A model generated the notes under the pieces. It was not told where the DNA came from and did no database searches. It saw only the letters and a list, made by a program, of their open reading frames with translations. A program made the translations under genes and the position numbers. DNA of 64,000 nt, from assembly GCA_000091205.1 (NCBI GenBank), contig AP006499.2. One strand, given 5' to 3'. Shown here in pieces: positions 19,998 to 55,393 of the stretch. Numbering within the stretch: the first letter of the stretch is position 1; every line of letters starts with the position of its first letter. Origin of the DNA: Cyanidioschyzon merolae. Taxonomy: Eukaryota.

Positions 19998-20208
19998 TTG
20001 GGGTCCATCTGCGATAAACCGCGAAAAAGCATTTGCTTACACGCACCTGGGGTCGGAATATCATTGAGGTCAAAGACTAGAAGCAGAATCCTCTGGGTAC
20101 TTACGCGGGGCGTCGTCCCTCTGGCGAACTTGCGCTCGGAGAGGCGCGCGGATTGTTTATGCAGATTCTCGCGTTTCAACGCATATCAAAAAGGTTTCCG
20201 CAGGCCTC

Positions 20209-26880: not shown

Positions 26881-29530
26881 ATTTACTTGTGTCGATGTGT
26901 AGAACAGGTGAGCAGTCCAAAGAGCACACAGCATTGGATGGGTGCGATAGCCATATGGCTATGCTGATGAAGTCTGTGACGAGGTCCCTCTGCTTAATCG
27001 CTGAGAAACTTTTCTCGTCCGATACAGTGCCTTGCATGGGTTTCGGATGTTCGGCTTGAACGCTGTTTCCGTCAAAACGCCGCACGGGTGCAACCGCACG
27101 AAACCTCTCCCAGCCTTTAAACATCTAGGGAGCACCCCCTTTGGATTCTACGCTTCTACCAGCGAGCAAGCAAGAGAGATTTTTGCTGATGATTCAGAGG
27201 CCGTCAGAATAATTAGAAGGGTCTTCCTTAACGTTTACCCGAAAGGCTGTAGCACGCCAGCTCGACAGGAGTCTTCAAAAAAGCTCAAAGTGTTGACAGT
27301 ACGTGAGCGAAGAGCAACTGCACTCATGCAAACGTCTACCCCTACACCGCATGGAGACTTTCCAGTATGCGGGATTCTTGGATACAGCATCCTCCAAACC
27401 AGTGGGAAAATGAATTTTACTTAACGCGTCCTTGAGCCGCCGCCCGCGAGGGTGCTGTAAAGCTGCGCTGCCTCTGTACGACGTGCACAGACCCGCGCCT
27501 CGCACCCGAGAGAGCCCCCACTGGAGACTAGGCTGCTGGAGAGCCGCGTGCTCGATCAAGCCAATATTCCACAGGCGTTTCCATGACTAAAGCTGGCTGA
27601 GCGAGGAAATGCCCGTGGGTGAGGTGAATTCTCTGTTCTGAGCATTGAGAGTACGTCCACATCAGTGGAAACTTTTAGAAGCTTTCATCTAAATGAAATA
27701 ATTAGTGCATTTACCTCATCGGGCTGTGCCCGACTCATGAAATGACTAAGCGTTTGAACTAGACTGTCTCATTTCCGCACCAATGAAATGGCGCTTTTTT
27801 CCCGCGGAGCTGTTTGTTCACTTACGTTGTAGCTGTATATCAACGAATCCAATCATCACTATCCAAAAGCTGAGTTGCAGTTGGATGCTGAGGAAGAAAT
27901 CACTGTAGCAATCGAGGCCTCCGTAAGTTAGACCGACCCCACCCGTGTGTCAGAATAAAACGGAACGTCGCACTGCTCGCTTTTCCCATGCCTTTCTAAT
28001 TTTAGCCCAATCATTTCTTAGATGCGCATCCTCCGCACTCAAACTAAAATAATAAAAGTTTACAGGTTCACTCGTGGTTTTTTTGGATTCTCGTTCGTTT
28101 TTCCGTGGTAGCTTGTTCGACTCTTTGTTGCTGGAATGCGTTTCTTTGTCGAAATCATAATGATTCACGACGCCATTGAACAAGGATTCGTAAAGTACCC
28201 GATTATATTATCCAGTTGATACGTCCAAGATTCCATTTTTCTCCTTTCTTTGCGTCTAGTACGATGAAACAGCGCATTCTTCAAGTGTTTGACCTTTCTG
28301 CTTCAAGACAGCTGGAGCGCGTAGCAACTTGCACCGCTGGATTGACGACGACGAAGAAAATTCGACATCGTCCCTTGAATAGCGTTTCGTAAACGCACGC
28401 CAAACGCTCACTGAACCAATCACAGCAAGTAATCGATGCGGTTCGAAAAGCAAGTCCTTCCCTCTTGATCGCCATCGACGAAACGGGATTCCGCCGCAAT
28501 TATAAGCTATCTCTCACGGGACCCGCTCCCAGAGGCACCCATCTCATTTTCCGCGCGGAAAAGGTTCTTGGACTAGAACTAGAGTCGTCGCTGCGATCGC
28601 TTCCACTCGGGATTCCGTCACCGCTTTGAGCCTGGGGGCGTACACGGATCGAGATCTCTCGAGCGCTTTCACAACCTGGAGCTTCCTTCTGGTACTTGTT
28701 TCAGCATGGTCAACATAGCGTTCCGTGAATCCTCTATCGAATAGAACAGCGAGCACTCGGGCGCGCAGCAGACATAGTACTCGCCAAGTAGTCACCCAGC
28801 TCAAGCACGTCATCGTAGAGTTCGCCGTCGGACCCGGAAACGGAGGAGCGAACGGACAGGACCCTTTTCTGGCTGTCAAATTGGCATGTGCCGAACGATG
28901 AAGAAAGGGTTCATGATCTGCAGGGCGACCCTTTGAGGAACAGTTTTCGGGTATATAGGGGAACACTTGACCACAATCAGATGTCATCGCCGCGATGAGC
29001 GCACCGCGACTTTACGCGAGGAAGACGCAAATGGCAAGCAAAGCGTAGATCGCATCTCCCTTTCGAGCATTAGATGCGTGAGCAGCAGCCGGAAGCAGTG
29101 AAATGGTGGCTTTGACACTGCCATCAACATACTTCTACTTCTGAAAACGGAGCTAGAGGGACAAGAGAATTCTGCGTTGCTACAGGCGCATATGAGAGAG
29201 ACAAGGGAAGTAGTCAAACATCATGCCCGCCAAGACTGGTATTGACGAAAGTGAGAAGCGACCCAAAGCCTAGTCTTTTCTCCCGAGTTAGAGGGTCGGT
29301 CCTCGTTTGTTCAGAAATGAGTGTAGATCTGCCTCCACGTTGGGGGCCTATTAATGAAATGATTCATAATCCGCGTCCTCCTGCTGGCAAACCTGCTCTT
29401 TCTACTTATGGTCTATCACCTCAATTTAGTTCCAATCTCAGGTGAGCGTCATCGAATGCTTTTTCGCAGTTTTCAGCAGGAGCATTGGAGTGCATTCATT
29501 TTGAAGAAATGAATAATCCAAGGTGAAGCT

Positions 29531-31800
29531 ATGGATATGCAGGACAGAGATCCTGTTCACCAAGTGTCGCCGGCTGCCAGAGAAAAGCAAAAAGCAGTGT
29601 CTAGTCCAGAGGAAAAGGAGAGGACAAGAAAGAAACGGCAGGTGGCCCGAAGTCAATGGCCGCAAGAAAGACGAATGTACGACGATACGGTGGTGATAGC
29701 CTGTCTTTTCGGACATATCACGGATACGTACGAGGAAAAATTGCGAGACGCCATCAGAAACCGTGTCGATTCGTACTCCATGAGTACTAGAAAGGCGTCG
29801 TCAGGGCTAATGCATTTGGTGATGAAGATGAACGAAAACGTGACGCACATGGAAACAGTCGCGGTTCCGGACGAGTTTTTCGACAAGACCTTTATTCGTA
29901 ACCTAATGCTTGGCACAGGCGAAACACGGAGAGAAAATAGCGGGTTCACGCCCTCCACGAAAATTATGCCGAACTCCGCTTCGAGGGTACTCGAAACAGG
30001 GGTGACCAGGATATTTACGCATGCGGAGCGATGAAGTATCTCACGAACCTGAAGAACCATTTGACGATGAACCTCGAACGTTCCATGATACGCGCCGTGG
30101 TTGCACTCTACTCGGGCCTGTCTCGCAAAGGACTGCGGGCGATTATCAATGGCATCACGAAGGATCGCAAGCATGAAGATGAGATCGAATTCGTCGACAA
30201 GAAGACGTCACGCAGGAGCACAAATGAAGCGTCTGTAATCCAAGGGGTTATAAAAGAGCGCCGTACAGTGTTGGGGCTGGCGAATCCAGTAGAAGAGGTA
30301 TCAGATATGAAAAAAATGAAGAGAGACACTATCGCCTCGTCCTGCGATATTTCGTGTTTTTGGACCAAGAGGTCGAACGCAAGAAGGAGATGAAGCTGAG
30401 TGAGCAAAAAATGAAGATTGGGAGAGACGGAAGGCTGCCCTGACGGGGAAGCGCTTCAACGTCGATCCGATATGTAACGTCAAGTCATACTTTGTGGGTA
30501 TCGATTCAAGAGTCCTCCATGGAATCATGAAGGAGATCAGTCCGGAGTTCAATGTAAGGAAGATAGAGTTCACTGGTGAAACAAGTGAGACGTACTGGAA
30601 AAACATCTTCGATATCAAACATCTCAAAACGAGCAAGCAAAAGGTATTTACTGGGATGATTGAAACCGATGGAGTAGCCTCGTGTGTGCACTATCGGCGG
30701 TTGAAGAAAGATCGGCCAGTCCCTTCGTCGGCTGCGCCCGTTACGAAGGATGAAGAAAACAATGAGGAGGATCCTGCGATGCAGGAGGTGCAGGATAACG
30801 ACCTTGTCTTTGACATGACGAAGGATGAAGAAAAGAAGAAGGCGGATCCTGCGATGCAGAAAACGCAGGATAACGACTTTGCCGTCGGCGTGGACCCTGC
30901 GAATACGAATGTCATAAGTATCGCAGTACCTAAGCGTGCGGAAAACGGTACTGACGGTAATTTACGTCAGAAAGACATGCGTCTGTTGAGATTCTCGAGA
31001 GCGAGATTCTATTGGGAATCGGGAATAATGAATGCGAGGAAGAAAATCGACACTTAGAATGCAGGAATGAATAATCACCTGGAAGCTTTGAGCGAGGTGA
31101 CTAGCCGAGGAGCGTACTATGAAGCCTTTCGGAAATTCATGGAAGTTCGTGTTGCCCACTGGGATGCGCTGTGGGAAGAGTATACTAAGCCCCGGTGGGC
31201 TCTTTTGCGAATGAATCTATACGGTGAGAGGCAGCGGGCGTTCGCGAATCTTTTCAATCAGTTGAGCGCCCTCAAAGAGGATCAAAGTCAGAGGCTGGTA
31301 GTGGCATACGGAGCACGGCGATGGAAGACCAAAAAAGGGTATACGCCAGCTCCAACGACAAGAACGTACAAGGATTCCGCAAGGCGTTTCGTCACGATAC
31401 CTCTAGATGAGTTTCGAACATTGCATACACACCATGAACTGGGGTGTACATTTCAGAGAGTGGAGATAGAAAAGTGCCAGAGGAGCCCTGAGGATATAAA
31501 AAAGTATGGACCGCTGACGGAAGAGCAAATGGAAAGGATTTCGAAAGTTCGTGGACTACTTGCATTAGTAAGTAAAACCAGTGATGGTAAGAAACGTATG
31601 GAGTATGTGAACCGAGATTTTAATGCCGCTATCAATATTAGGGAATGTGCGGTGCTGGAGAATAGGCCTCCAAAGTAGACAAGAGAGAACTTTATTGGAC
31701 AACCTCTCAAAGTGGAACTATATGAGAGAAAGTTGGAAGCAGTGGTGGATGCCCGGTCCGAAAAGACGGGGAGGCGTCTGCACGTCAGCTGGAGAGGATT
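29531..31800 (+). mobile_element. Near-full-length TnpB/Fanzor-like RuvC-nuclease gene (OMEGA-type), disrupted. ORF pieces are 29531..30034, 30031..30393, 30494..31057 and 31067..31678; likely a pseudogene, or a gene with short introns.
   Basis: RuvC-I-like ...FAVGVDPANTNVISIAV... Then ...GYTPAPTTRTYKDSARRFVTIPLDEFRTLHTHHELGCTFQRVEIEKCQ... (the TnpB 'DPAYTSQxCxxCG' region with a zinc finger). RuvC-III ...RMEYVNRDFNAAINIRECAVL... An in-frame TAG at 31055-31057 separates the last two pieces in the same frame. Protein-level similarity to copy 4 continues past the stop at 31676-31678 (TRENFIGQPLKVELYERKL vs TRVNFVGQPLRIELYNDKL). Confidence 0.55.
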
Positions 31801-31836
31801 TGTCTAAGGCGCGCTGATCGCCACTACTGTCCACCG

Positions 31837-31870
31837 CCGGCGAGCACGCGCTCGTGCGCGTGCTCGCCGG
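31837..31870. repeat. Perfect GC-rich palindrome / hairpin (15-bp stem, 4-nt loop)
   Basis: ccggcgagcacgcgc-tcgt-gcgcgtgctcgccgg. The two arms are exact reverse complements. It lies ~40 nt past the conserved 3' segment of the Fanzor-like copy and ~90 nt upstream of the PPR ORF. Confidence 0.8.
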
Positions 31871-34802: not shown

Positions 34803-36043
34803 AGCACCCGCCGTAGCTCGGTTGCAAGGGACTCCACCCCCGCCCGGTCGACCGCTCGCCAATCGTCCGGCCGCATGCAGCGTCACTGGCGGACCCAAGT
34901 ACCAAACGCCCCGTGCGAAAGGCACAGCGCCATCGCCGATGGCCCGGGGGCCGCTGCGCCGGCGCACTGACACCCAAACAAGATGCGTCCCGCCTTTACG
35001 CTCCATGATTGATGAATCTAGCCTGACCTTCCCGGATGCGCGCATGCTCTGGCGAGCAACAGCGGTATACGCCGTCAGCTCCATCCGTGTGCCATCGCCA
35101 GCCGCAGCTTTCGCCGCTCGCGCGCGCACGCACGAGCATGGCTGCGGACGCACACGCACGCCATGCGCATCTCAGCTATCATAGGCACAGGGAATGAACG
35201 TCGCTGGTGCGGCCGCGCGCTACCATATCGTGCAGCCGCATTGCAAATCAAGTCGCACACGCATCACCCGATACATGCGACGTCTGGCGCCGCTGCACGC
35301 TGCCCACAAATCATCGCAACATGATCGGAACTTGCCAGCGCCGGTGAATCTGCATGCAGCGCGCCACAGTCCAGATATGAGTACGAAGCGGGACTTTCGC
35401 GCTCTGTATGGTCGATCCCAACTGTAGCGTACAGCACGTCAACTGGCGGTCCACAGAACGGCGCATCGATTCCGGCTTCGTTACTTTGCAAAACGCTACA
35501 AGCGTCTGCGCGGTTGAGTCGCTCCTGCTGCGCGGACGTTACTGCATATGCCCCTGTTGCGTCTTTCTGAGACTGCATAGTGTGTGCGTAGACGCACGCA
35601 GGCGCACATCGCGGGCGTTGTCCATCCGGTCGCTCTTCAGCATTGCATTTCAGTAGCATGTGCGCCGCACATCAAACATGAATCTATGCGTGCGCATCGA
35701 GCGCGGCTTCCTCGGAGCCCAGCTTCCGCTGCAACGGAACACGCCGCAGCTGTGGGCAGAGGCGCGCTCATCGCCAGTGATGAGCGTACATGTGTCGAGC
35801 TGTTATTCGAGCGCACACAAGGAGAACTTGCATGCCGAGAATTTTCGCTCAGGGTGCCCTGAGATGGTGCTCGTGTGGGGTCATCAGGCGGACCCAGCAG
35901 TTCCTCCGTTCCATCAAGAGCCGAGTGAATAGCGGAGACTACAAGCGCTACCGAGTGACCCATGAGGCATCGCATGCTCCAGGCGCAGACGCTAGCAGTC
36001 GGGGCGCGTGCAGCGCAAGTGTCATATCAGGAGAGATGGTTTC
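34803..36043. repeat. Inverted-repeat arm A (~1.24 kb), partner of 39800..41037
   Basis: Reverse-complement identity is seen through identical or near-identical ORF translations on opposite strands (e.g. 35637..35975- equals 39868..40206+; 34788..35159- equals 40684..41073+), with only a few substitutions. The boundaries were mapped by loss of complementarity. Confidence 0.8.
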
Positions 36044-36618
36044 GGCCCCGCTCAAAAACTCTGATTTGGGATCTCAGTGATATGGGACTGAGCGGGGAGC
36101 GCGCATGTTTGCATAAATCTGTTCCAGATCGCCTGTGAAGTTCCCTCTTTCCGAGCAGATGTACGAATGAGGAACCAAGTGCAATCTTCCCGGATTTTCA
36201 GGATATCTGCTCAGCATGATCCAGGGTGAATTGCGCGATCACTCTACATATTCCAAGTTGTCTTCCACAAAAAGCATGAAGAATTCGGGTCATTCAGAAA
36301 CCAAGAAGCAGTATGCTAGTGCAAAACGAAACCGTGCTCATCACGTGCCGAACTTTTTTAAGAGCGCGCACGATGCTCCTTGTTATGCTTGCAGACCAAT
36401 GCGTGGAGCAAAGTAGTGCCCGCTTACCTAAATGCGGAGAGCAATCGCGCATTGAAACGATCCCTGCTAAGACTAATTGAGTTCTAGCCATGAAAATCTA
36501 CATAAAAGATTACTACTGGCTCTAAGCACAGCATGCTCGACAGGAAAAAAGCTCATTTCACGAAAATTTCCGAACTGATTCTGATCCGGAATGAAAATAC
36601 TTGAAAAAGAGAAAGCGT

Positions 36619-38538
36619 CTAAAAAGCCGGCAAGAATGCCTTGTCGCGTGCCAGCGGATTTGCTCTGCCATCTTGGGGTCCATTTCTGAGCATCTGAAGA
36701 ATCAAGACGGATGATAAAATGAAACCGATGTGACGCACTCGGACGTGTGATGGCACTAATGATCGCACTTTCAGACGAGGACGATCGCGGTTTCTCAGAA
36801 ACACATTTTCACCAATGGTCACAAAACGATCGAGGAAAGAGATCCCGTTGGGAAGAATCAAATTACCCGCCGAATCCCGCGGACAAGACTCCGAGTTTTC
36901 GACTACACAGACAGGAATGAATATATCCCTTCGACCGGATACGCGATGTACTTCCTCTTGTGCAAGATGCATCCTTCTAGCAAGATTCTCTTCAAATGTG
37001 AGGCCCTCTGGAGGGAGCGCATACCCATGTGTGAAAACCAGTATGCATCGCTCCCATACTCCACCATCGAAGAGACTCTTCAGTTCCTCCAAAACTAGCC
37101 TGAAACAATGGGATCGGTACGAATCCAGTCGCTCTATAATGCAGACAATGTCGATTTCCAAACCGCGAAGCGCAGCTGCGACACTCTCGCATGTTCCAGC
37201 GCGGCTCCATTTCTTAGAATCCTCCCCAGCTTCATCGTAAAAATATTTTTCAGAGGAAGGGATCTCAATCAAACGCAGAGACATCCCTTCCTTTTCTACA
37301 GGATAAATCAGAACGTTTTCGTTCGGCGAAGGAACGAATTCAGTCTTGCGATTTGGATGCGCTCTTTGTTCCCTTTCACGTTCATACGATCGCTCTTCTA
37401 TTACTTCGAGCCCATGCTCTGGATCTCGTTCTAAAATCTCATCATCCGATAGTATGAGAGCCATGGTGTGGTTGGTTCGTGCGACAGGGCTTCCAAGAAT
37501 GCGGTTAATTGTGGCAGACTTTCCTGCACCGATCGTGCCAGCGAAAAGAATAGTGGCATCTCGAAATGGAGAATGCGCGCGAACGACGTCCACTAATTGA
37601 TTTACAGTGGCGCACCCTGGCCGCGAATCATTCCCAAAGCCGCGAATGATTTCCTCATAGTTCCTTCTTTGGAGACCGACTTGCTTCATGCAAGCTGTGA
37701 ATGCTTCCGAGTCCGTCTTTTCGGCGTAAGCACAAAGCACTTTGCACGCAAGGTGCAGATTTTTTCCTTCAATAACGTCTTCTGGCTCAAACAGTGCATT
37801 GGCATCGAGCCCCGCATTCCGTGCAGAATCCAGAAAGAGCTGAATGCACCGCCGCATGCTGTCCAAATTCCGTGCATCTCCAGAGCACGGAGCGTCTATT
37901 CCGGCAATATGCAAGAAAACGTTAGGGTCGCTGAGCACAGCCCGAAGCCCGTTTGAAGAAGATTCCGATGCGCCTGTTTTTCGTGCGATCCACAACAGGC
38001 AGAGCCTTTCCAAGGCTTTTTCAGTGGCATCTGGAATAGCTCCCCAAGGTTGCTCCCCACAGACCTCCGACAGCGAAGGCTTATCAGAAAGCGTAGGGCT
38101 GGGCCCCTGCTGCCAACTCGACCCAGACTCTTTGAGATCTTTGCTATATGGCGCTGGGCTTGTCACCACGAGTGCTGCGAGACGAGACAGGTTAAGCTCT
38201 TGCTTCACGTGTATACCCATGTTGTAAAGATGTCGCTCATCGGATATGAAGAATTCTCCGTCAGCTGCGTTTTCCGCTCCGTGTCCTTCAGATTCCGTGC
38301 CTTTTCGGGACTGGCTAAGCACCCCTGGAAGAAGATTACGCCGAAAGAGTTGGCGCCGACGTGACCGAGTTCGTCCTGTGGAAGGCCTCGAGCCTCTCGT
38401 GGTTTTATCCGAGTCGGCTGTGCGCCGGCCAGAGACGTCGCGCCTTTCAGCAGCATCATCACCGCGAGGCTCGACACGCTCTGCAAAATCCAGTCTGACT
38501 TGTTCTCTAGTCTGCGGAGAGGTAAAGCTCTCCGTCAT
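36619..38538 (-). CDS. Toc34/Toc159-family GTPase (chloroplast outer-envelope translocon receptor-like; AIG1-type G domain) with an N-terminal extension
   Basis: G1 motif FAGTIGAGKSATIN. Then ...IDIVCIIERLDSYRSHCFRLVLEELKSLFDGGVWERCILVFTHGYALPPEGLTFEENLARR..., which aligns closely with Toc34 (IDVLLYVDRLDAYRVDNLD..GKGIWNKAIVALTHAQFSPPDGLPYDEF.SKR). The annotated N-terminus (38507-38538) overlaps the TnpB-remnant tail, so the true start is probably an internal Met. Confidence 0.6.
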   Translation of the reverse strand: MTESFTSPQTREQVRLDFAERVEPRGDDAAERRDVSGRRTADSDKTTRGSRPSTGRTRSRRRQLFRRNLLPGVLSQSRKGTESEGHGAENAADGEFFISDERHLYNMGIHVKQELNLSRLAALVVTSPAPYSKDLKESGSSWQQGPSPTLSDKPSLSEVCGEQPWGAIPDATEKALERLCLLWIARKTGASESSSNGLRAVLSDPNVFLHIAGIDAPCSGDARNLDSMRRCIQLFLDSARNAGLDANALFEPEDVIEGKNLHLACKVLCAYAEKTDSEAFTACMKQVGLQRRNYEEIIRGFGNDSRPGCATVNQLVDVVRAHSPFRDATILFAGTIGAGKSATINRILGSPVARTNHTMALILSDDEILERDPEHGLEVIEERSYEREREQRAHPNRKTEFVPSPNENVLIYPVEKEGMSLRLIEIPSSEKYFYDEAGEDSKKWSRAGTCESVAAALRGLEIDIVCIIERLDSYRSHCFRLVLEELKSLFDGGVWERCILVFTHGYALPPEGLTFEENLARRMHLAQEEVHRVSGRRDIFIPVCVVENSESCPRDSAGNLILPNGISFLDRFVTIGENVFLRNRDRPRLKVRSLVPSHVRVRHIGFILSSVLILQMLRNGPQDGRANPLARDKAFLPAF

Positions 38539-38824
38539 TTACGGTGCCCTGGAGGTGTCGAGTCCTGCAACTATGCACCTGAGACGCAGCTGAACGAAGC
38601 CCAAACGTTCTGCAGAATCTGAGTAAATTAATACCGGCGTGCAGACGCATACCAACTTTTTTTGACCGTCTCCATGCTATCGGTTTCAACTTGTCATTGT
38701 ACAGCTCGATCCTGAGAGGTTGCCCCACAAAGTTGACTCTTGTCAGCTCCTTGGGTCTCATTTTCAGCACCGCACATTTTCTGATATTGATGATGGCATG
38801 GAAGTCTCGGTTCACGAACTCCAT
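38400..38824 (-). mobile_element. 3'-terminal remnant of a TnpB/Fanzor-like element, copy 4
   Basis: Minus-strand ORF MEFVNRDFHAIINIRKCAVLKMRPKELTRVNFVGQPLRIELYNDKLKPIAWRRSKKVGMRLH.. (RuvC-III plus a conserved tail). The downstream nucleotides ...agttgaaaccgatagcatggagacggtcaaaaaaagttggtatgcgtctgcacgc... match the tails of copies 1-3. Confidence 0.5.
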
Positions 38825-39799
38825 GCGTTTATTGCCTCTGGATCAACGCACTATTGCTAGAGTTCCTCGAACTCGTACCCACTGTCCCACTACAGTCTCG
38901 TCATCCTCCCGTTGGGCATACATCTTTTGCTCAGTTGGCTCCCCTATTTTTCTTCGTCTTCGTTATTTCCTCTTCTTCGCTGCATGGTTGGCGAGAACGA
39001 GATGTTCCGTTTATTACTGCAGTCATCGATGACGGCCCTCAAGGATTCGCAAATTCCAGATCCATAACATTCTCACAGATTTTTACTTTTGGAAAAGAAC
39101 GCACTTAGAACGTATTTACTGAAACCTGGGAAAAAGCATTTGCTTACGCTCATCTGCGGACGGAACACAGATGAGGTGCAAGCCTCGAAATGACGCGATC
39201 GCAAATTTGCACAGTCCATTCGGTTTGGAAAGTCTTGATTAGAAAGTCTTCTGCTCTACTAGAACGAATCCGGATATGCTTGGGAGGACGCTGAGTTTAT
39301 TAAAGTCAAAAGTGGCCAGAAGTGCCCCGTTTCTTCACGCGAAGCATGGACCGCAGAACTACTACAAAGGAAACCGCTGTCGTCGGCTGGGTCGACACAC
39401 GCGCAAGGGTGGGTACGTCGTAGACCACGCAAACAAGGTCCCTGACTTCAGAATACCGCAAATTCCAGAAGATTTTCCACTGAAACCATATGTTGCAGTT
39501 GGTTCGTAAAGGTTTCTGGGGCTACGTTTGGACACCTTTCGTCGTGGCGAGGGAAAAATCTGCAGGGAGTTTCAAATAACGCTGCAATATGGACGACTAT
39601 GATGAGAAGACGCTTCTTTCCCCAACTGAGGCGCAACGGTTTTTACACCACTGCCAATATGACGATTAAGGCAAGTACTTACCTCTGAGAGTCCTGATGC
39701 AACCCTGTCAAAAACATATAGCGCAAAAGCACGAATAAGGTCACGGTCCTTCTGTGAGTGGCAGTATTTCACAACGTTGAGTTTTACTCGAAGCAGCTG

Positions 39800-41037
39800 G
39801 AAACCCTCTCTCCTGATATGACACTTGCGCTGCACGCGCCCCGACTGCTAGCGTCTGCGCCTGGAGCATGCGATGCCTCATGGGTCACTCAGTAGCGCTT
39901 GTAGTCTCCGCTATTCACTCGGCTCTTGATGGAACGGAGGAACTGCTGGGTCCGCCTGATGACCCCACACGAGCACCATCTCAGGGCACCCTGAGCGAAA
40001 ATTCTCGGCATGCAAGTTCTCCTTGTGTGCGCTCGAATAACAGCTCGACACATGTACGCTCATCACTGGCGATGAGCGCGCCTCTGCCCACAGCTGCAGC
40101 GTGTTCCGTTGCAGCGGAAGCTGGGCTCCGAGGAAGCCGCGCTCGATGCGCACGCATAGATTCATGTTTGATGTGCGGCGCACATGCTACTGAAATGCAA
40201 TGCTGAAGAGCGACCGGATGGACAACGCCCGCGATGTGCGCCTGCGTGCGTCTACGCACACACTATGCAGTCTCAGAAAGACGCAACAGGGGCATATGCA
40301 GTAACGTCCGCGCAGCAGGAGCGACTCAACCGCGCAGACGCTTGTAGCGTTTTGTAAAGTAACGAAGCCGGTATCGATGCGCCGTTCTGTGGACCGCCAG
40401 TTGACGTGCTGTACGCTACAGTTGGGATCGACCATACAGAGCGCGAAAGTCCCGCTTCGTACTCATATCTGGACTGTGGCGCGCTGCATGCAGATTCACC
40501 GGCGCTGGCAAGTTCCGATCATGTTGCGATGATTTGTGGGCAGCGTGCAGCGGCGCCAGACGTCGCATGTATCGGGTGATGCGTGTGCGACTTGATTTGC
40601 AATGCGGCTGCACGATATGGTAGCGCGCGGCCGCACCAGCGACGTTCATTCCCTGTGCCTATGATAGCTGAGATGCGCATGGCGTGCGTGTGCGTCCGCA
40701 GCCATGCTCGTGCGTGCGCGCGCGAGCGGCGAAAGCTGCGGCTGGCGATGGCACACGGATGGAGCTGACGGCGTATACCGCTGTTGCTCGCCAGAGCATG
40801 CGCACATCCGGGAAGGTCACGCAAGATTCATCAATCATGGAGCGTAACGGCGGGACGCATCTTGTTTGGGTGTCAGTGCGCCGGCGCAGCGGCCCCCGGG
40901 CCATCGGCGATGGCGCTGTGCCTTTCGCACGGGGCGTTTGGTACTTGGGTCCGCCAGTGACGCTGCATGCGGCCGGACGATTGGCGAGCGGTCGACCGGG
41001 CGGGGGTGGAGTCCCTTGCAACCGAGCTACGGCGGGT
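39800..41037. repeat. Inverted-repeat arm B (~1.24 kb), partner of 34803..36043
   Basis: See arm A. Near-perfect reverse complement. Together the arms bracket a 3.76-kb unique core holding the Toc-family GTPase gene and the TnpB remnant. Confidence 0.8.
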
Positions 41038-42253
41038 GTGCTGTATTTAGTTTTCATGGGTCGGAGGAGGTAACCTTCGCGATGCCGCTCCATGCGTCGC
41101 GACCGTATTGGAGAGAGCCACATTGTACCAATTGGCATGATGAACTGACCCGTTTGCGTAGATGCAACTAGCATTGAAAGAAATCGCAGCACGACTTCAT
41201 GAAGGATCCGAATCACGAAAATCGATACCACAGATTAATTGAACTTCCTCCAGTGCGCATTGGCCTTCTACACGGAGAATGGAGTATACTACACCGACGT
41301 CGAACTGCGCGACAATCTTCCATCTATTCGTCTTCATAGTCCAATCGGATAGATTACACCCGGGGTCCGAGAAAGATCCCTCAATTTTTGTGCGGGGCGT
41401 CGAGTCCACTGCGTCCAGTTCATTCTGTTCAGGGATCGTCTCCCTTTAGCTACGGCACGCATGTCCAACGCTTCGTGCATGATTGCGAAAAGGGTCTCAT
41501 GGAGGCTGAGCCCCCGATAGACGAGACCCCAATCAGTTCCGGCCAAAATGGTCGCGAAGTATTGTTGCTACGCAGGTTGCCGCACCCTCTGGTGGGACGC
41601 CTACTGCCCGCCAGCGAACGCGAGCGCTCCTATCTAAAAAATAGACGTAAGCGCTAAAACGGTTTTCGATGTGTAAAAGGCTTAGAAACTCCGTGAAAAG
41701 TTTGTCCTTCCGTGAAGGTGTGTAAATCAGACTCCCAGCAGGCAGCAACTGTTTCTGAAAACCTACCAGAAGGCGATCAAGCAGCCTTTCATTTACTGTT
41801 AACTCATATATGGGAAGTCTTTTTTCTGCCTCAGTCAGAATTCCGCGCCATGTGTCTAGTGCCTGTTGAGAAAACGCACGAAAGCCCAAAAGAAGCCAGC
41901 TTTCCTGCTTCCCTCCACTGGTAAGGTATGCGCGAGAGTCCTTAACGACAGTGCTTTTCCCTGCAACTTCGAATGCGATTTCCGGAAAGAGCCGCGCTTC
42001 CTCCGTTCGGATAAGACTAGGCAACAAGAAACTGTCCTTTAGACCGCGGATAACCTTCGGCGACAACCTAGTCATGAAACCAGGACGCTACGAGGCGCAT
42101 ACAGACGATAGAAATTTTGCCCGCATTCTAGCCACACGCCGCTCGCTCGCCGAAATGCACTGCAGGCAGCTGCTAAATAGATGACAAACGCTTAAATGCG
42201 AAGCAAAACAGACGCTGCTACAATGATCCATCGACGGCTTCTCGGGGCATTCG

Positions 42254-44872
42254 TTATGGAAACTCATAGGCGACTTCCAAAAGAGCAAAATCACATCCCG
42301 GTGCCGCGCGATACAGAGCCAGCAGGCAAGCCATTGGTTTGTTACGAATAGCGGCGAGTCCCTTCTCACGTAGCGAGCCGCGCAAGCTTGCGCCGAAGCG
42401 ACCCAGAAATGCTGTGCGTTTGTTGTAAGTTTTGGCGATCCCTGACCCGAAAACAGTTCTTCCAGGGGTGATGACGACAGGGATCCAGCTATTGTTGTCA
42501 TTCAGAGCGCGAAGGTGCCCAATGTGAATCTCATCGAAGTAAACAGTAGCGAATGAGGATCCTGCTAGCCCTAAAGCCTTCGCTTCCTCGAGCTGAGCCT
42601 TCTCAGGTTTTGAGGTGGATCTGAAGCACGAAAGATATCCGTATACCAGAACCTCTCGTCTTTCTCGTAGAAAGATTTCCGACTGGACTGCTCTAAGTCG
42701 CTCAAACTCAATGCAAAGGTTTTCAATTTTCTCCTGGCCTCCATACAGTGCTGCTAATTGCTCTAGCGTGTCAGTGTATCGAAAGGTGCTATGCTGGATC
42801 CTTCCAAGTGCGAATGTTTGACGTATCTTGACAGATTTTTTCCCCTCCGAGGATTGAATCCATCGAGCTAATGCCAGTATACGACGAACAAGACGATCCT
42901 GCAGAATTACTTTCGGAATATTTTCAGGGAGGCTCGTGCCCTCCGTTCTTTTTTGCTGTTCTCTTACTCCATCTAGCAGGTACATTGAGGTCCATCGGGT
43001 CGAATGTACCTCCATGATGCTGACACCATCAAAAGGAGCATTGTACAGCTCTCGCTTTTCGAGGGATGTTAGCAGGATTGCCGCACCTGGAACGCAGATA
43101 GCATCAAATGCATCGCGTTGGGAGGTTTCATAAAGGCGAATGCAGACGTCTCGCGCTTCGGATCCATCGCGCGCCAAAATGATTCTATATTTCCTAAAAA
43201 TGTAGTAGTCATCTGATGCACTCAGTATTTGCGGTGCACTCGTCCGTTCTGCAGACCTGTACGTCCCGCGCTCTCGATACAGAGGTGACACATGTGTCAC
43301 AATGCATGCTAGAGAGAAATACGAGCGGTCGTCCCATGCATCCAGAGCGCTGGTAAGAATGCAGGGGTGGTAGAGTTCACCCGTTCGACCACCGCCAAGC
43401 TTTGCAATAGGTCCGAAATCAAGTAACTCCTCATAATTATCTGAAAGCTTCCGAATAATGCCCTGGGGCGATGATGCATTCAGGTGAATCTCGCCTCTGC
43501 GTACACGGTAATTCTCTATGATAAGGATGTCACCGAGTTGAATGTGATAAAAATATTTGGAACAAAGCGAATTCCACACGACAACAGTAGCAGAATCCGC
43601 ACCGTCACCTATCTCAAATTCGAATTTGAATGGCACTGACTGCCGCATGTCACTCTTTTTCGGCCATGGCATTAGGGACGTCTTTCTGAGGACGCGCCCG
43701 ATGATTGGTCGCTTCACGTCTCCCATCAGCGCCCTGGCGATGCGCACCGCTGCACTAGTGACTGATTTAATCGAAGCTGGGTCTTCGACACGCTCTACGT
43801 TGCTAGGGTCTCGCAATCTGGAATCGACAGGTAAGGCATCAAACGCTCCAGGACCAAGATAACTCTTTCTCGACGATGCCAAAGGGACATTTGCAGCAGT
43901 CTCAAGCGGGGTGGATGACGTTGTCCAAGCGCATGTCAGGGGAACGTCTATCCAAAAATCCTCGTGGGGTCGACGTAGTACGAGACAGTCATACACAACG
44001 ATTACTCGAGGCGGGTAGAGTCCGCGCAATTCGTTGAAACGAACTGACCATTTTCTTATTTCTAAAATGCTCCCTCGATCTAGGTCACCGGACTGGACGA
44101 TTGAATTCAAATGTGGGTGTAGGCAAAAGCGTGTTTTCGTCTGCTCAACCGGATTGCAGACGGTAATGTCATACGCATCTGCATCCATCTCAGGGATTTC
44201 ATCTTTTGTGCCGTTGACCGTAAACCAATAGGCTTGATCCCGGATATAATGCCGGACGCATAGAACTAGGAACACGATTGAACCGCGGCATTCTTCCCCA
44301 GGAGCACACTCGTGGAGCTTTTCCGTGCCAGCAGTCGTGAATATTTGGTCTCGTTCCTTTGGCTCTGAAGAGCCGCTCTGAACCAGGCTTGAAGAGGCTG
44401 AAACCTGACCTGTGTTGGACTTTGCAAGCTTTTGATTTGCGACTTTTAACGTGCCCTCCCTCGGCCGCTTGCGCTGGTTTCCACGGTTTCCAGTCTGTCG
44501 CTTGCTGCGTGAGTCCCGCGAGTCAGACCCTTCGACCTGTACTGTACGATTCTCTACAGCCTTCTGCAGCGGCTTTGCTCGACTCTTTTGCAGCTCTTCG
44601 TCTTGCCTCCTTTGGAAAATAGGTTTCACATAGTCATCAGCCTTGGTGTCGCCGAAGCGTCCACTTTTACGAGGCATTAACCGTTCTGTACGAGAACGTT
44701 TGTTGTTTTCTCGGATACACTCGCAATCAGAAATTTGCGCCACATTCAAATTGGGCGCGTGCTGGACAGATGGTGCATCATAAGCACAGGATGTATCCAG
44801 CTGCGCGCAGCTTCCGCCTATATCAGTCAAAGATAGAATAGACCCCGTGAGGAAAGTCGGACGTACTCGCAC
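42254..44872 (-). CDS. Large hypothetical protein with possible OB-fold-like segments (RMI1/RPA/CST-like?); function unassigned
   Basis: 872-aa uninterrupted ORF with a basic/acidic low-complexity N-terminal third. The C-terminal part (...SFATVYFDEIHIGHLRALNDNNSWIPVVITPGRTVFG...) looks like a nucleic-acid-binding OB-fold, but I cannot place it. The first ~22 codons (44805-44872) lie inside a dispersed repeat, so the true start is probably an internal Met (~44677). Confidence 0.4.
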   Translation of the reverse strand: MRVRPTFLTGSILSLTDIGGSCAQLDTSCAYDAPSVQHAPNLNVAQISDCECIRENNKRSRTERLMPRKSGRFGDTKADDYVKPIFQRRQDEELQKSRAKPLQKAVENRTVQVEGSDSRDSRSKRQTGNRGNQRKRPREGTLKVANQKLAKSNTGQVSASSSLVQSGSSEPKERDQIFTTAGTEKLHECAPGEECRGSIVFLVLCVRHYIRDQAYWFTVNGTKDEIPEMDADAYDITVCNPVEQTKTRFCLHPHLNSIVQSGDLDRGSILEIRKWSVRFNELRGLYPPRVIVVYDCLVLRRPHEDFWIDVPLTCAWTTSSTPLETAANVPLASSRKSYLGPGAFDALPVDSRLRDPSNVERVEDPASIKSVTSAAVRIARALMGDVKRPIIGRVLRKTSLMPWPKKSDMRQSVPFKFEFEIGDGADSATVVVWNSLCSKYFYHIQLGDILIIENYRVRRGEIHLNASSPQGIIRKLSDNYEELLDFGPIAKLGGGRTGELYHPCILTSALDAWDDRSYFSLACIVTHVSPLYRERGTYRSAERTSAPQILSASDDYYIFRKYRIILARDGSEARDVCIRLYETSQRDAFDAICVPGAAILLTSLEKRELYNAPFDGVSIMEVHSTRWTSMYLLDGVREQQKRTEGTSLPENIPKVILQDRLVRRILALARWIQSSEGKKSVKIRQTFALGRIQHSTFRYTDTLEQLAALYGGQEKIENLCIEFERLRAVQSEIFLRERREVLVYGYLSCFRSTSKPEKAQLEEAKALGLAGSSFATVYFDEIHIGHLRALNDNNSWIPVVITPGRTVFGSGIAKTYNKRTAFLGRFGASLRGSLREKGLAAIRNKPMACLLALYRAAPGCDFALLEVAYEFP

Positions 44873-47635
44873 TATATTCTGGACCTATTTTGCACGACCA
44901 TCAGCACAAGTCATTGCAGTTTGCACCGCGACCGCTTCCTTCTCCTTTCCCGTATCTCCGACTTTCAATACGCTGGCGTCTCCTAGCCCTCCAGCTTCGA
45001 TGTCAGCAGGCGAAGGATGCCGATGGCTGCGTTCATTCGAACCCAGAGTTTCCTGCTTCCAGCCCTCATCGACGTACTTCATGCAAAGGCGGAAGTTGTG
45101 ATCTGCGCTTCTTTTAGCATTTTCATCCTTTTTGTCCACAACTCCGGTGCACCCTTCGCAGCGAGGACACTTGCCCGTTGTCCGGTGCCGCCATACGTCC
45201 ATCGCACGTCTTGCTCCGAGTGCCGCCCTGTGGCGCATGCCTGCTTGCAGTGTCGCTCGGTACACGCCCTCGACGGGTGCAGAGCGCTCCGCTCCATGCG
45301 CTCTTCAGTTTCTGTGCCCAGCGCCATACCCTGCGATCACAGGCTCGGGCTGGGCGATCCCCGCGGCAAGCACCCTCACTGCTGGGCGCGTAAACGCTCG
45401 CTGCTCGATTCGAGTACTCGGAATCCGCTCCCTCGCACGCTCTTCGTTTTTCGCGTACGCTTCCCATCGAAGCTGCCGACGAGCATCACGCGACTCGAGG
45501 TGCCGTGCCAGCTCATGAGTATTGTGCGCGCAGGTTCCATCCACTTGCGACGATGCGGGTCAGCCATCTGCGACTCCCTTCGTCTCCGGTCGCTCGCTCG
45601 CTCGCTTGCGTGTTCTTCTATCCCCATACTCGTTCGCTTCCGCTTCAGCGAAGATGGCAGGCGCGGGAGGAGAAGTCACGACTGTGGGCGTAACTCGGAC
45701 GTTTCCGATCCCGTGCCCCGGGACGGGGTGTCGGTTTCCACATGGGCGTCGGGCTTCGCCTCGGGTCTCACGGAGGCGCTGGTGCAACGCTTCGCTCTCC
45801 TTGGGCTCCTGCCGTTGCTAAGTGCACTGGATTGCAGGTTCACGAGGCCACGCATCTGTACAGCTTGCTGCTCATCGTCGCCGTGTTTCCTGTTCTGAGC
45901 AGGGGTGCGTTGGAGCTCTGATGGGGCCTTGAGGCATGTAGGGCGCTCACGACTGATAGCGGTGGATGCTGCCAGGCCATCGGTCTCGAACGAGGACACC
46001 ACGCCTCCTCGACTTTATGTGAGCGTTCTGTTTCTATCTGTTCCCTGCCTGTCGCATCTCTCTTTAGCGTCGTTCGCTTTTCGTTCCCCCAGCGGTTCAT
46101 GAGTGTCTCCGAAGTTTCGGGCGAAATTTGCGTAGTACGCTTCATGTACTCTATGCTGTCGATGGATACCTCCTCTTCTTCGATGTGCTCCTTGGCCTCC
46201 ATAGGACGTTTCCATGCCCTAATCCCTCGTGCGTGGGCGCCCACTTCGCAGCGAGGCGAAAAAGCCGCGAACCGGGGCGCGCGTACGAGCGACCTATAAA
46301 TGCGTTTACAGCAAGGCGAAAATCCATTCCATTCAGGGGCTCTGGAACAGTTCCCGAGGTGCAGAGGCTGTTTCACTCGCTCGGGTAGGCACTCGCAGGC
46401 TGCAGGTCTATAGTCTCCTCGACATGTTCGTCTTCCAGGATACTCAACGGAGGCTCACGCGCTCTGTATATCCGCCCAGCATATTCAAGTCGGCGAAGCG
46501 CCCGTCATGAAGAGCTCGTCCATGCCGTCCAGGCTGGTATCTGAGTCGTCATCCGCACGTATCCACGTCATCGAATCCTTCACGCGCCATGGGAATGAAT
46601 GCTGGCATGATCCAGGGTCGCGCGGCGTAGTTTTCCGCCCATATACACCTTTGAGTTATCCAGGCTGATTTGGGTCGCGAAGCGAATGCTGGCCTCGAAA
46701 TGCGCAACGTCGTTCGGCTATGGAGCCAAAGTGCCCGCGACGTCGATGAAAGCACAGTGCAGGTGAGGTGTGTCCCGACTACGCTTCGAGACAGTGACGG
46801 CATGAAAGGCCATCGATGCCAACGGTGCATCTACGAAGTTGTTCGGTTTCTCAGGGACCCCGATGCACTGGACGTACACGGTCCTAGGCAGGAGGTAAGC
46901 GCGCCACTGACGCATGCTGCAAAGAAGCGCATGTTTGCGGACGCGGAATCTGATATCCGGCGGGTGCGGGTGCATTTCGAAGTATCCCTTGCCGACAGTG
47001 GTGCCGTAGAATACCTCATACAAACAGCGAAGGAGGGAGTTTCCGAGATCGTATCCCGTGAGATGTAGCGCACTGCTTATTTGGGATGTGGTTTCGTTGA
47101 TGGTTGGAAAGCGAGAATATTTTGTGTTTCAAACGGAATCGATTATATGAGGTGAGGATTTGAACATACTTTCGGTATGAGCTCTTGAAGAAGTATTCGC
47201 ACGAAAACTTCCAACTTTTGCGTCGTCAACCGAGCGTAGCGGCCTGGTGCGCCCACGAGTAGCCTTGAAACATGGAGATCGGAAGCGTGCAGAATGCCTG
47301 ACTTGAGCGTGCAACGCGTAACTAAAGGAAAAGAGTTCAGGCTTCCTTGTACGAATTGCATCATGATATCGGCTATTTTAGGCAACGGTATGTGAGGATA
47401 TCTCGAATCACCTTGATGCTGGTGATGTAACGAATCCCTTCGGTGCAAAGTCGAGGGAGCCACTTTGAAGAGTCGACCGAGAATCCTAGAACGATGCATG
47501 AGTCCTGAGGCCCTCATTGCTGGACTATGAATACTCGGGTCCTGCATCTGAAAATGAGTTCGGGTGAAAAATCGAAATCGAGGAACACAGGCAGCAGCTC
47601 CGTGTTCTACTTCACTCCGACCCGGGTGCCGACTC
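44805..47635. repeat. Unclassified ~2.8-kb GC-rich dispersed repeat, copy 1 (full length)
   Basis: Identical ORF-track translations recur at 50.6-52.0 kb and 60.1-62.9 kb (e.g. the 293-aa ORF at 45017/50774/60270). End points were mapped where the copies diverge. There is no long conserved ORF and no recognisable transposase, RT or LTR/TIR structure. Confidence 0.75.
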
Positions 47636-50319: not shown

Positions 50320-50562
50320 TATCCAACAGTTGCCTCTGTCGAGAAAGAACGATCACCACACAACCCGAGGGCTTCTAGCGAGAATCTCCGGGCATTTTAC
50401 AGCGCACATGGAGCTGTTGCCGATCGCGGGAGCTCTGCGCCTGCACGCCGCTGCTGTGAGCTCGACGCTCGAAAAGCGATCGTGCCTTCCGAGGCGTCGC
50501 GCGTCACCACAAAATCGGTGGGTGCGCTCGAGCCAGCAACCTCGCCGATGCTGCAGCGGGCG

Positions 50563-51950
50563 CGCAGCTTCCGCCTATATCAGTCAAAGATAGAATAGAC
50601 CCCGTGAGGAAAGTCGGACGTACTCGCACTATATTCTGGACCTATTTTGCACGACCATCAGCACAAGTCATTGCAGTTTGCACCGCGACCGCTTCCTTCT
50701 CCTTTCCCGTATCTCCGACTTTCAATACGCTGGCGTCTCCTAGCCCTCCAGCTTCGATGTCAGCAGGCGAAGGATGCCGATGGCTGCGTTCATTCGAACC
50801 CAGAGTTTCCTGCTTCCAGCCCTCATCGACGTACTTCATGCAAAGGCGGAAGTTGTGATCTGCGCTTCTTTTAGCATTTTCATCCTTTTTGTCCACAACT
50901 CCGGTGCACCCTTCGCAGCGAGGACACTTGCCCGTTGTCCGGTGCCGCCATACGTCCATCGCACGTCTTGCTCCGAGTGCCGCCCTGTGGCGCATGCCTG
51001 CTTGCAGTGTCGCTCGGTACACGCCCTCGACGGGTGCAGAGCGCTCCGCTCCATGCGCTCTTCAGTTTCTGTGCCCAGCGCCATACCCTGCGATCACAGG
51101 CTCGGGCTGGGCGATCCCCGCGGCAAGCACCCTCACTGCTGGGCGCGTAAACGCTCGCTGCTCGATTCGAGTACTCGGAATCCGCTCCCTCGCACGCTCT
51201 TCGTTTTTCGCGTACGCTTCCCATCGAAGCTGCCGACGAGCATCACGCGACTCGAGGTGCCGTGCCAGCTCATGAGTATTGTGCGCGCAGGTTCCATCCA
51301 CTTGCGACGATGCGGGTCAGCCATCTGCGACTCCCTTCGTCTCCGGTCGCTCGCTCGCTCGCTTGCGTGTTCTTCTATCCCCATACTCGTTCGCTTCCGC
51401 TTCAGCGAAGATGGCAGGCGCGGGAGGAGAAGTCACGACTGTGGGCGTAACTCGGACGTTTCCGATCCCGTGCCCCGGGACGGGGTGTCGGTTTCCACAT
51501 GGGCGTCGGGCTTCGCCTCGGGTCTCACGGAGGCGCTGGTGCAACGCTTCGCTCTCCTTGGGCTCCTGCCGTTGCTGAGTGCACTGGATTGCAGGTTCAC
51601 GAGGCCACGCATCTGTACAGCTTGCTGCTCATCGTCGCCGTGTTTCCTGTTCTGAGCAGGGGTGCGTTGGAGCTCTGATGGGGCCTTGAGGCATGTAGGG
51701 CGCTCACGACTGATAGCGGTGGATGCTGCCAGGCCATCGGTCTCGAACGAGGACACCACGCCTCCTCGACTTTATGTGAGCGTTCTGTTTCTATCTGTTC
51801 CCTGCCTGTCGCATCTCTCTTTAGCGTCGTTCGCTTTTCGTTCCCCCAGCGGTTCATGAGTGTCTCCGAAGTTTCGGGCGAAATTTGCGTAGTACGCTTC
51901 ATGTACTCTATGCTGTCGATGGATACCTCCTCTTCTTCGATGTGCTCCTT
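50563..51950. repeat. Dispersed repeat, copy 2 (3'-truncated, ~1.39 kb)
   Basis: Shares the same 5' boundary (including ~70 bp gcgcagcttccgcctatatcagtcaaagatagaatagaccccgtgaggaaagtcg) with copy 1. Identity ends at ...gatgtgctcctt | gttctaacgc. Confidence 0.75.
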
Positions 51951-52155
51951 GTTCTAACGCGGCCTCAAAACCTTTTTCTTGATCGCGGGACACCTACTTA
52001 GCTGGAACATTGTATGCAAAATCGCTCATGTTTGTTAATACAGAGACCCCGGAGGCACATTCACATGCACGTTCGGGCCCACATTCTCATTCGAAAAAAC
52101 TAACATACAAGTAAGTTCCACAATGCCAAATCTGGCGTGGTTTATGGCGGTACAA

Positions 52156-53922: not shown

Positions 53923-54029
53923 GGTCAGCTAAACCCGTCTCCAGTAAAGCAAGGGAAACCAGCTGTGCACGCACGCCTTTTATCGAGGGACTGCCGTTTT
54001 CGAAATCGCGTTGTATGGATCGCTAACTG

Positions 54030-55393
54030 CGCCCATGCAGGAGTGATTTGGAACTGGTCCCACGTAATTTACTCGGTCGAACACTCTAGTCTTTCAGCCT
54101 CTTCCGTCCGTCATTAACTTCAGCCTTTGCGAGCAGTTTCTGCGTATGTTTCCTTTCCTTTTCCCGTACCTCCGGCTTTAAGTGTGCCGGTACCTCACTT
54201 CCATCCAGCTCCGTTCGAAGCAGTCGAAGGATGGTAATAGTGGCCTTAGGGTCCCGAGTTCATTGCCTACGGTTGCTTTCTACGCATTTCATGCACAGAC
54301 GGTAGTTGCGGCCTGCGCGTCACTTCCCATTTTTATTTTCTATGCATACAGCCTACGTGTGCCCTTCGCTGCGGTGAGACTCGGCCCGGTTCAGTTGTTC
54401 ACATATTTCTACAATGTCCCGTCCTCCGCGGGCACCCCTGTGGCTCGAGGTAGCTTGCTATATCGCTCAGTATATGCCTTTGACCCGTACAGAGGTCTTG
54501 TATCGATGCCCTCCTCGGTTTTTCGCGCGCGGTGCCGTATCCTACGATCATGGGCTTCTTCTGGACGGTTTTCTCAGCGAACATGCTGAAGGCTGCATGC
54601 ACGTGCGAACCTTGTTCCATTTGATAAAAGATTTCTTGTATGCGTGAATGCCCTTGATGGTGCACGCACCGGTAGGTTAATCCCGCATGGAGAAGTCTAG
54701 AAATTCCGATCCGAGTGCGCTTCCTCTGTGGAGAGCGGTGACGCAGACGCCACAGGGAGCGATCGTTGTCATGACTGAAGACGGAGTCCAAAAACATTCT
54801 CCAAGCGAACAGACGACTCAAGAGCCACTCGGAGCGCATCCCTAGAAGGTACCATGCTCCTGCAGAGTCTTATTTAATCGACGGCCGCTAAAAGAGGTAG
54901 ACCAGTTCGTCGAACAAAATCGACTGTTGAACTTGGCAAGTTAGGTCAACTTTCTGAACGACTTTGTGAACATGTCGTTCATGGACGACGTAGAGCCTAT
55001 TTTCTCGTCAATTCATAGGCACGAATTACCGCGACAATGAGTTGCCTTGAAGCAGAGAGATCCGCAACATGAAGAACGCGGGATATGAAAATGTTACAAG
55101 AAAAGAAAGGAAAATACCATGGGTGTGGCAGTATTAATTGGAAACGGTGCCGGCCATTGTACGAACGCTCGTTCCACGGCACCGCGAATCATCCTGATTC
55201 CGGTGATGCGTTTAACTCCGGCAGCGAAACGTCGATGTAAACTTTCCGAAAATACGACCAAGCACCCTGAACTAAGAATGAAACAGTCAAGCCTTATTGC
55301 GACACCTGAGAGAGTCGAGGCTGAACGACTGAAAACCTGGGGGAAGATCATAGCACAAGTATAGAGCAAACCATTCAGTGGTGCACTTAATGC
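54030..55393. repeat. Inverted-repeat arm (~1.36 kb), partner of 56856..58225
   Basis: ORF translations are mirrored on opposite strands (54182..54589+ equals 57661..58068-; 54399..54839- equals 57411..57851+; 55119..55364+ equals 56886..57131-), with one or two substitutions. Confidence 0.8.

Follow-up and report, generated by a model that had tools for sequence, protein, structure and literature searches.

The stretch of DNA analyzed here, referred to as the window, covers 64,000 nucleotides (nt) of contig AP006499.2 from the red alga Cyanidioschyzon merolae. On its minus strand the window carries a gene for a Toc34-like GTPase, and the remains of a Fanzor1 transposon, which we call copy 4, lie directly upstream of this gene in the same orientation. 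Beyond copy 4, the gene for mitochondrial ribosomal protein L27 (MRP-L27) points the other way. The GTPase open reading frame (ORF) overlaps a short ORF that begins in the Fanzor remnant, and a first-pass annotation had taken the overlap for a fusion, in which the conserved tail of the element runs into the N-terminus of the GTPase and supplies its first ~10 codons. The features on which this question turns are as follows (aa, amino acids).

36619..38538, minus strand: Toc34-like (AIG1-type) GTPase gene, 639 aa, corresponding to XP_005538080.1 / BAM82044.1
38507..38824, minus strand: mechanical ORF of 105 aa, made of 63 Fanzor-homologous codons and 42 non-homologous read-through codons
38524..38538, minus strand: ancestral start of the GTPase, ATG and MTESF, preceded by an in-frame TAA (38539-38541); the L001 orthologue has MTEAF
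38539..38624, minus strand: spacer of 86 nt between the last element homology and the ATG, with no similarity to family copies by nhmmer, blastn or shuffles
38624..38633, minus strand: TATA-like TATTAATTTA, 86-95 nt before the GTPase ATG, candidate function only
38625..39205, minus strand: copy 4, a decayed, internally deleted, non-autonomous Fanzor1 of the 'B-type' subfamily
38633..38821, minus strand: segment of copy 4 that matches the family 3′-tail profile (nhmmer E = 1.1e-42) and encodes the RuvC-III motif NRDFHAIINI
39276..39509, plus strand: MRP-L27 gene, the divergent neighbor (PF09809, E = 2.7e-12)

The Fanzor-like remnant directly upstream of the GTPase gene is real, but little of the element is left in it. 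The only recognizable protein in copy 4, placed by tblastn at 38723-38878, corresponds to the last 53 residues (700-752) of P0007, a metagenome relative of the family; RuvC-I and RuvC-II are missing, and copy 4 accordingly holds no complete nuclease ORF. For the family as a whole, 71 related loci were collected and 59-63 non-redundant 3′ tails were aligned. The family tail is conserved for ~260 nt past the MEFVNRD codon and ends in ...CGTCGTTCGACTTTCGAA(A/C)GGCGTT, after which similarity collapses. In intact members the stop codon is a TAG located ~30 nt after GCGTCTGCAC, and conservation extends ~65 nt beyond the stop before a sharp fall. Copy 3, which is near full length, aligns to positions 1-242 of the tail profile, and the profile of 59 tails covers copy 4 at 38821-38633 only, which corresponds to positions 1-189 of ~260 (nhmmer envelope to 38625); copy 4 keeps ~60% of the 3′ tail. 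No blastn match from any of the ~80 family copies extends past 38623. The 160 nt that follow GCGTCTGCAC in copy 4, including the first GTPase codons, resemble the family tail and copies 1-3 only at chance level (shuffles, p = 0.41-0.96). Compared with the main family right end, copy 4 is short by ~70-75 nt, including the stop codon and the terminal hairpin; likewise absent from it are at least 36 nt of the tail type that copies 1 and 2 have in common. Because the profile, blastn, shuffle and copy 1/2 comparisons all stop short, we conclude that the stop codon and the final 36-75 nt are gone from copy 4, and no intact right end leads to an element boundary. Homology ends at 38633-38623 and does not run into the GTPase N-terminus as had been supposed. 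Scattered blocks in a MAFFT alignment had raised the possibility that copy 4 keeps a diverged right end, which the nhmmer, blastn and shuffle tests ruled out.

The 32-nt overlap between the two ORFs (38507-38538) exists as annotated. However, the frames differ (38824 mod 3 = 1, 38538 mod 3 = 0), and a TAA stands directly before the GTPase ATG in the GTPase frame. The 105-aa ORF opens with the RuvC-III-like motif MEFVNRDFHAIINIRKC, and its frame drifts on for 42 unrelated codons because the family stop was lost from copy 4. Judged from the sequence, the overlap is an ORF-finder artefact without a junction of conserved sequence. The notion that the first ~10 GTPase codons derive from the element finds no place here, as similarity to the element ends more than 85 nt upstream of the ATG.

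The start codon itself agrees with the public annotation: all 639 aa encoded by the GTPase ORF match XP_005538080.1 with 100% identity, a protein recorded as "similar to chloroplast outer membrane protein Toc34". Other ORFs in the window also match C. merolae 10D proteins exactly, e.g., BAM82048 (light-harvesting protein) and BAM82038. A homologue search with the GTPase found two orthologous loci, L001 and L002, with a protein identity of ~49-50% each. In L001, which lies on a 430-kb contig, the first in-frame ATG after a stop (L001:9809) gives MTEAFEKSRPEQ, and the DNA of the start reads ATGACGGAGGCTTTC (MTEAF) compared with ATGACGGAGAGCTTT (MTESF) in C. merolae. The L002 orthologue starts at the equivalent position, and the motif GRTRSRRR.L.RR.L is common to all three proteins further downstream. 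Neither tblastn nor the DNA profile detected Fanzor sequence in the L001 or L002 loci. Because L001 starts with MTEAF in a locus free of Fanzor sequence, the first codons of the GTPase are ancestral and not element-derived. Aligning the three start regions at the DNA level gave no information. A coding fusion would entail a shared frame or a join by splicing, first codons homologous to the element and a different N-terminus in the element-free orthologue, and all of these are absent.

Overall, we consider it about 85% probable that copy 4 is a Fanzor1 copy that is old, dead and internally deleted, resembles the published CMe-1A family and sits unfused in the spacer between the GTPase and MRP-L27 genes next to an ancestral GTPase start. 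Several parts of this reading are shown directly: that the family is Fanzor1, how far homology reaches, that the frames differ, that the N-terminus is conserved and that the orthologous locus lacks the element. Copy 4 is internally deleted, and its right end is missing the stop codon along with the last 36-75 nt; the leftover Fanzor frame reads through 42 unrelated codons and closes by chance 32 nt inside the GTPase ORF. The GTPase uses its ancestral start, MTESF, and none of its codons come from copy 4. Copy 4 would be inactive as a nuclease or guide-RNA unit and would represent at most passive promoter-proximal DNA, and we infer that it is transcriptionally inert toward the GTPase gene. Several points weigh against this reading. 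The orthologues are ~50% identical, and the MTE-F match amounts to 4/5 residues and 9/9 nt of the first three codons. Copy 4 fills most of the spacer and ends in the TATA-like TATTAATTTA at a plausible core-promoter position, and a transcription start inside copy 4 may exist. Part of the original GTPase 5′ flank was probably lost together with its ancestral neighbors, and its function may have been taken over by other sequence.

The first-pass annotation went further and proposed that an OMEGA right end could influence the host gene. In its full form, this explanation holds that a conserved right end is fused to the gene, that the first ~10 codons are element-derived, and that a guide-RNA unit drives or modulates the GTPase. 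The 32-nt ORF overlap and the shared orientation speak for it, as does the retention of the RuvC-III-coding segment, which points toward the gene. In bacterial IS200/IS605 elements, the promoters of omega-RNAs lie in the RuvC-III-coding segment. However, the explanation is at odds with the end of homology at 38633-38623, the different frames with a TAA before the ATG, the MTE-F start conserved in an element-free orthologue and the missing terminal 36-75 nt of the right end. Additionally, the tail of copy 4 has no unusual RNA fold (z = -0.69) and no Rfam match. Even at the level of the family, a hand-built four-stem model of the right end shows pairing in 85% of cells with covariation not above shuffles, a comparison of low power given decaying pseudogenes, and no family RNA structure was demonstrated. 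We therefore regard a fused, active OMEGA right end as highly improbable. What stands of the earlier proposal that the element's right end forms the 5′ region of the gene is that a Fanzor1 fragment lies in the 5′ flank; the right end proper is missing 36-75 nt.

RNAalifold returned zero pairs and no consensus structure for the family right end, where the copies are mostly neutrally decaying pseudogenes and power is low. Rfam and tRNA scans of the region around copy 4 and of the whole window were empty. The terminal hairpin of the family right end occurs in at least three unrelated sequence versions (copy 3, 31837-31870; alignments A3 and A5), namely CGTCGTTC...GAACGGCG, AACGTTTTT...AAAGGCGTT, and the perfect 15-bp stem CCGGCGAGCACGCGC-TCGT-GCGCGTGCTCGCCGG of copy 3. 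This hints at a structural requirement at the family terminus, although column-wise covariation is not significant.

Four copies of the repeat family lie in the window, and the three besides copy 4 are as follows.

~7380-7774, plus strand: copy 1, Fanzor1 repeat
~19481-20100, minus strand: copy 2, internally deleted Fanzor1 copy
29400..31870, plus strand: copy 3, near full-length Fanzor1 pseudogene interrupted by in-frame stops and a single frameshift

Among the many metagenome relatives of copy 3, the closest is P0007 (752 aa), with 67% identity over residues 273-752; a full scan with P0007 returned 1232 relatives. In an alignment of 32 relatives, the RuvC D/E/D triad is invariant, with D484 in GxDPG, E656 in VDEFRT and D725 in NRDxNAAxNI. 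Single-sequence Pfam and PDB searches with the reconstructed copy 3 protein and with intact relatives gave nothing significant, and Fanzor1 structures were reached only with a profile built from distant relatives. This profile (A4) matched the PDB Fanzor1 proteins of Parasitella (9cf0, E = 1.3e-21), Spizellomyces (8gkh, 1.4e-13) and Guillardia (9cer, 1.4e-9). Because the profile matches solved Fanzor1 proteins and the D/E/D columns are invariant, the repeat family is, by homology, a true TnpB-descended Fanzor1. It shares with the Fanzor1 nucleases of known structure (Parasitella, SpuFz1 and GtFz1) a profile match over RuvC and the preceding domains as well as the motifs DEFRT and NRDxNAAxNI and the catalytic D/E/D columns. 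It differs from them at the zinc-finger position, where HHELGC...EKCQR stands in place of a clear CxxC pair, and its nuclease activity and guide RNA are only predicted. Unlike characterized Fanzor1 nucleases, copy 4 retains the RuvC-III end only.

A single C. merolae Fanzor1 family, CMe-1A, is named in the description consulted from Bao and Jurka 2013 (Mob DNA 4:12; PMC3627910), which gives ~150 copies; these have no terminal inverted repeats, and each agrees to ~80% with a consensus of ~3 kb. The window copies and the 71 metagenome loci match that description: they come from the same organism and form an old, many-copy family, ~70-80% alike, with mostly degraded ORFs and few intact ones. This identification with CMe-1A rests on the description and not on a sequence alignment to the published consensus. 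Compared with CMe-1A as described there, copies 1, 2 and 4 belong to a subfamily with a different 3′ tail, and internally deleted short forms such as copies 2 and 4 do not appear in the part of the account that was examined (PMC3627910).

The coding tails place copies 2 and 4 with copy 1 and the metagenome copy L067 (minus strand) in this subfamily. Over ~570 bp, copy 4 runs collinear with copy 2 (there at ~19517-20100), with which it has 70% identity and a common 5′ boundary. The 5′ part of both (~100-200 bp, of which copy 4 keeps ~100 bp) matches positions -200 to -1 relative to the Fanzor ORF of full-length copies. On these grounds, copies 2 and 4 represent the same internally deleted, non-autonomous derivative, in which the part upstream of the ORF is joined to the last ~150 codons and the tail. 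This points either to the spread of a short non-autonomous form or to a duplication long ago.

Several observations concern other members of the family. The statement that copy 3 also inserted next to a host gene holds in that copy 3 lies upstream of the PPR gene; the gap is ~104 bp (end at ~31870, first ATG at 31974) and not ~160 bp. A tandem acidic repeat of ~25 aa (75-nt unit, ...KDEE..DPAMQEVQDNDLV...) stands directly before RuvC-I in copy 3 (30743-30892), P0004, P0005 and P0007; its number varies, with two units in copy 3 and five or six in P0005. A divergent Fanzor-like pseudogene at 10558-11265 (minus strand) is 32% identical to P0007 residues 516-752; its RuvC-III motif has decayed to HRDLKISTNV, and the repeat comparison missed it. 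The ORF at 7128-7586 (plus strand), which ends in the Fanzor tail of copy 1, opens with ...FNPSYTPWKNPIEGMFSIVKR, and this start weakly resembles the DDE_3 transposase family, with an E value of 3.5e-4 that misses the curated cut-off. The start of the ORF may be a fragment of another transposon adjoining copy 1.

The surroundings of copy 4 differ from those of the orthologous gene. In C. merolae, a 3.76-kb segment (36044-39799) that contains the GTPase gene, copy 4 and the MRP-L27 gene is bracketed by an inverted repeat of unassigned strand.

34805..36043: inverted-repeat arm a, paired with 39800-41038 over 1239 nt at 99.3% identity
39800..41038: inverted-repeat arm b, paired with 34805-36043, with 9 differences

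In L001 the order is PPR(+), MRP-L27(-), a 604-aa gene(-), a CAP59-type glycosyltransferase gene(-), GTPase(+), ATP10(-) and RADX(-). Relative to L001, the repeat-flanked segment is inverted in 10D, and flipping it restores the L001 order with copy 4 replacing the 604-aa and CAP59 genes, which in C. merolae are now found at 52156-53922 and 58887-59912. Because synteny differs from L001 in this way, the ancestral neighborhood upstream of the GTPase gene must have been remodeled in the C. merolae lineage. One could therefore regard copy 4 as a rearrangement scar, which marks, and may even have mediated, the removal of the MA3-domain and CAP59-type genes from between MRP-L27 and the GTPase, for example by ectopic recombination between two element copies. 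Such a history is compatible with our preferred reading of copy 4 as an unfused, dead insertion. It agrees with the flipped segment, in which copy 4 stands exactly where the two genes are missing, and with the loss of the 3′ terminus of copy 4 right at the junction with the GTPase flank. However, copy 4 is collinear with copy 2 throughout and hence not hybrid-like, protein and DNA profile searches found no Fanzor fragments beside the relocated genes, and a single outgroup locus with long context does not fix the order of events. We hold the scar as a tentative idea that is on balance doubtful.

Metagenome contigs of the same species bear on the inversion itself. L003 and L004 have the L001-like orientation, L006-L009 have the 10D orientation, and the repeat copies in these contigs are mosaics of both arms. 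The difference in orientation of the 3.76-kb segment could be a real inversion polymorphism (flip-flop) or an assembler ambiguity through a collapsed repeat. L006-L008 had been considered as alternative upstream haplotypes and were not used, since they have chimeric junctions at 19-80 nt upstream of the ATG. The chimeric joins lie in L006:1-615, L007:1-98 and L008:1-108 (samples 3300050388, 3300053660 and 3300050367), and one of them joins an internal piece of the same gene.

A less far-reaching role for copy 4 than that of an OMEGA unit would be that of promoter DNA. The divergent spacer between the GTPase and MRP-L27 genes measures 737 bp, of which copy 4 occupies ~580 bp; only 86 bp remain on the GTPase side and 71-98 bp between the end of copy 4 and the MRP-L27 ATG. 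Element sequence does lie within the proximal upstream region of the GTPase gene, where copy 4 shares the orientation of the gene and ends 86-95 nt from its ATG. The TATA-like TATTAATTTA is the last stretch common to copy 4 and copy 2 (copy 2 version, TATATATTTT) and is, because of this sharing, taken to be element-derived. It is thus conceivable that, after the rearrangement, the Fanzor1 fragment came to supply the core or proximal promoter of the GTPase gene, and possibly of MRP-L27 too, with TATTAATTTA as the candidate element. In line with this, copy 4 is fixed in all same-species contigs that cover the region (L003, L004, L010 and L005), and the CAP59-type neighbor, which lies 1.1-1.5 kb upstream in L001 and L002, is ~20 kb away in C. 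merolae. A heterologous core promoter that depends on a TATA element also works in C. merolae (PMC12770821). However, according to the same 2025 paper, none of the alga's endogenous promoters had been dissected by then (PMC12770821). The 86-nt spacer has no detectable similarity to the upstream regions of L001 or L002 (p = 0.28 and 0.75, respectively); notwithstanding, it could be ancestral and contain the whole core promoter. In a compact genome any insertion comes to lie near a gene start, so that proximity is expected, and the promoter is a candidate by sequence. We consider this exaptation unlikely.

In its most specific form, the idea joins both histories: a dead Fanzor1 copy would have been co-opted as a promoter shared by two organelle-related genes, those for the GTPase and MRP-L27, once a rearrangement associated with a transposon had deleted the original sequence upstream, and its TATA-like end (38624-38633) would position the GTPase start. 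To this combination we give still less credence than to exaptation by itself. Similar to transposon-derived promoters and promoter-proximal debris, copy 4 is a fragment less than 100 bp from a start codon, in the same orientation and fixed; unlike known transposon-derived promoters, its promoter role is putative. A further comparison is offered by TldR proteins, domesticated TnpB relatives that serve as RNA-guided transcription factors (PMC10705468). Like them, copy 4 places TnpB-lineage sequence beside a host gene promoter. However, TldR systems consist of intact proteins with guide RNAs, whereas copy 4 is a ~53-codon remnant with no intact right end, and the analogy fails.

The host gene belongs by homology to the Toc34-type GTPases. 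Its ORF contains an AIG1 domain (PF04548, E = 7.6e-9, Pfam) with the P-loop motif GAGKS at residues 337-341, and the nearest solved structures are Toc34/Toc33: pea Toc34 (1h65, E = 8.7e-21), 7vcf_G (E = 2.1e-15) and the Toc34 structure 3bb1, which was matched with an E value within 1e-21 to 2e-15. Two Toc34 homologues are annotated in C. merolae, CMP284C and CMQ137C; Baek et al. 2022 found their preprotein binding to be weak and questioned their role in import (PMC9407449). The gene described here is probably CMQ137C. N-terminal of the GTPase domain, a calponin-homology-like (CH-like) region at 37723-38013 (minus strand, residues ~176-272) is present in the GTPase and in both orthologues; the Pfam CH match has E = 5.6e-4, below the cut-off, and the profile matches transgelin-2 (1wym) with E = 3.8e-6. 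In the profile search, none of the solved Toc34/Toc33 chains aligns beyond the GTPase region of this protein.

Further repeats were noted elsewhere in the window. Young segmental repeats at 44803-47621, 50560-51951 and 60111-62874 are 99.8-99.9% identical over up to 2.76 kb. An ORF of 293 aa, identical in all three and without a match in Pfam, lies at 45017-45898, 50774-51655 and 60270-61151. A second inverted-repeat pair of 1367 nt lies at 54028-55394 and 56856-58222. These young repeats and the second pair sit between blocks that are rearranged relative to L001. Past the MRP-L27 stop, by ~90-125 nt, a 36-nt block (39598-39633) is 89% identical to L001:2649-2684 and has no Rfam match; the non-coding DNA around it is not alignable between the two species. 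An 84-nt repeat in L001 was considered as 5S-like and rejected, as it has no Rfam match; it also has no homology to the inverted repeat of the window.

Both the Fanzor1 family and the GTPase gene were already known, and their juxtaposition is ordinary. Transposon fragments beside gene starts are expected in a compact genome, so that the proximity of copy 4 to the GTPase gene has little significance of its own. The locus nevertheless holds a lesson for annotation: an ORF overlap between a decayed transposon and a host gene does not amount to a fusion unless the end of copy-to-copy homology and the orthologues have been checked. C. merolae permits homologous recombination, so the promoter reading is testable in this organism. 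If true, it would provide a small example of a red alga putting Fanzor-derived sequence to new use as regulatory DNA.

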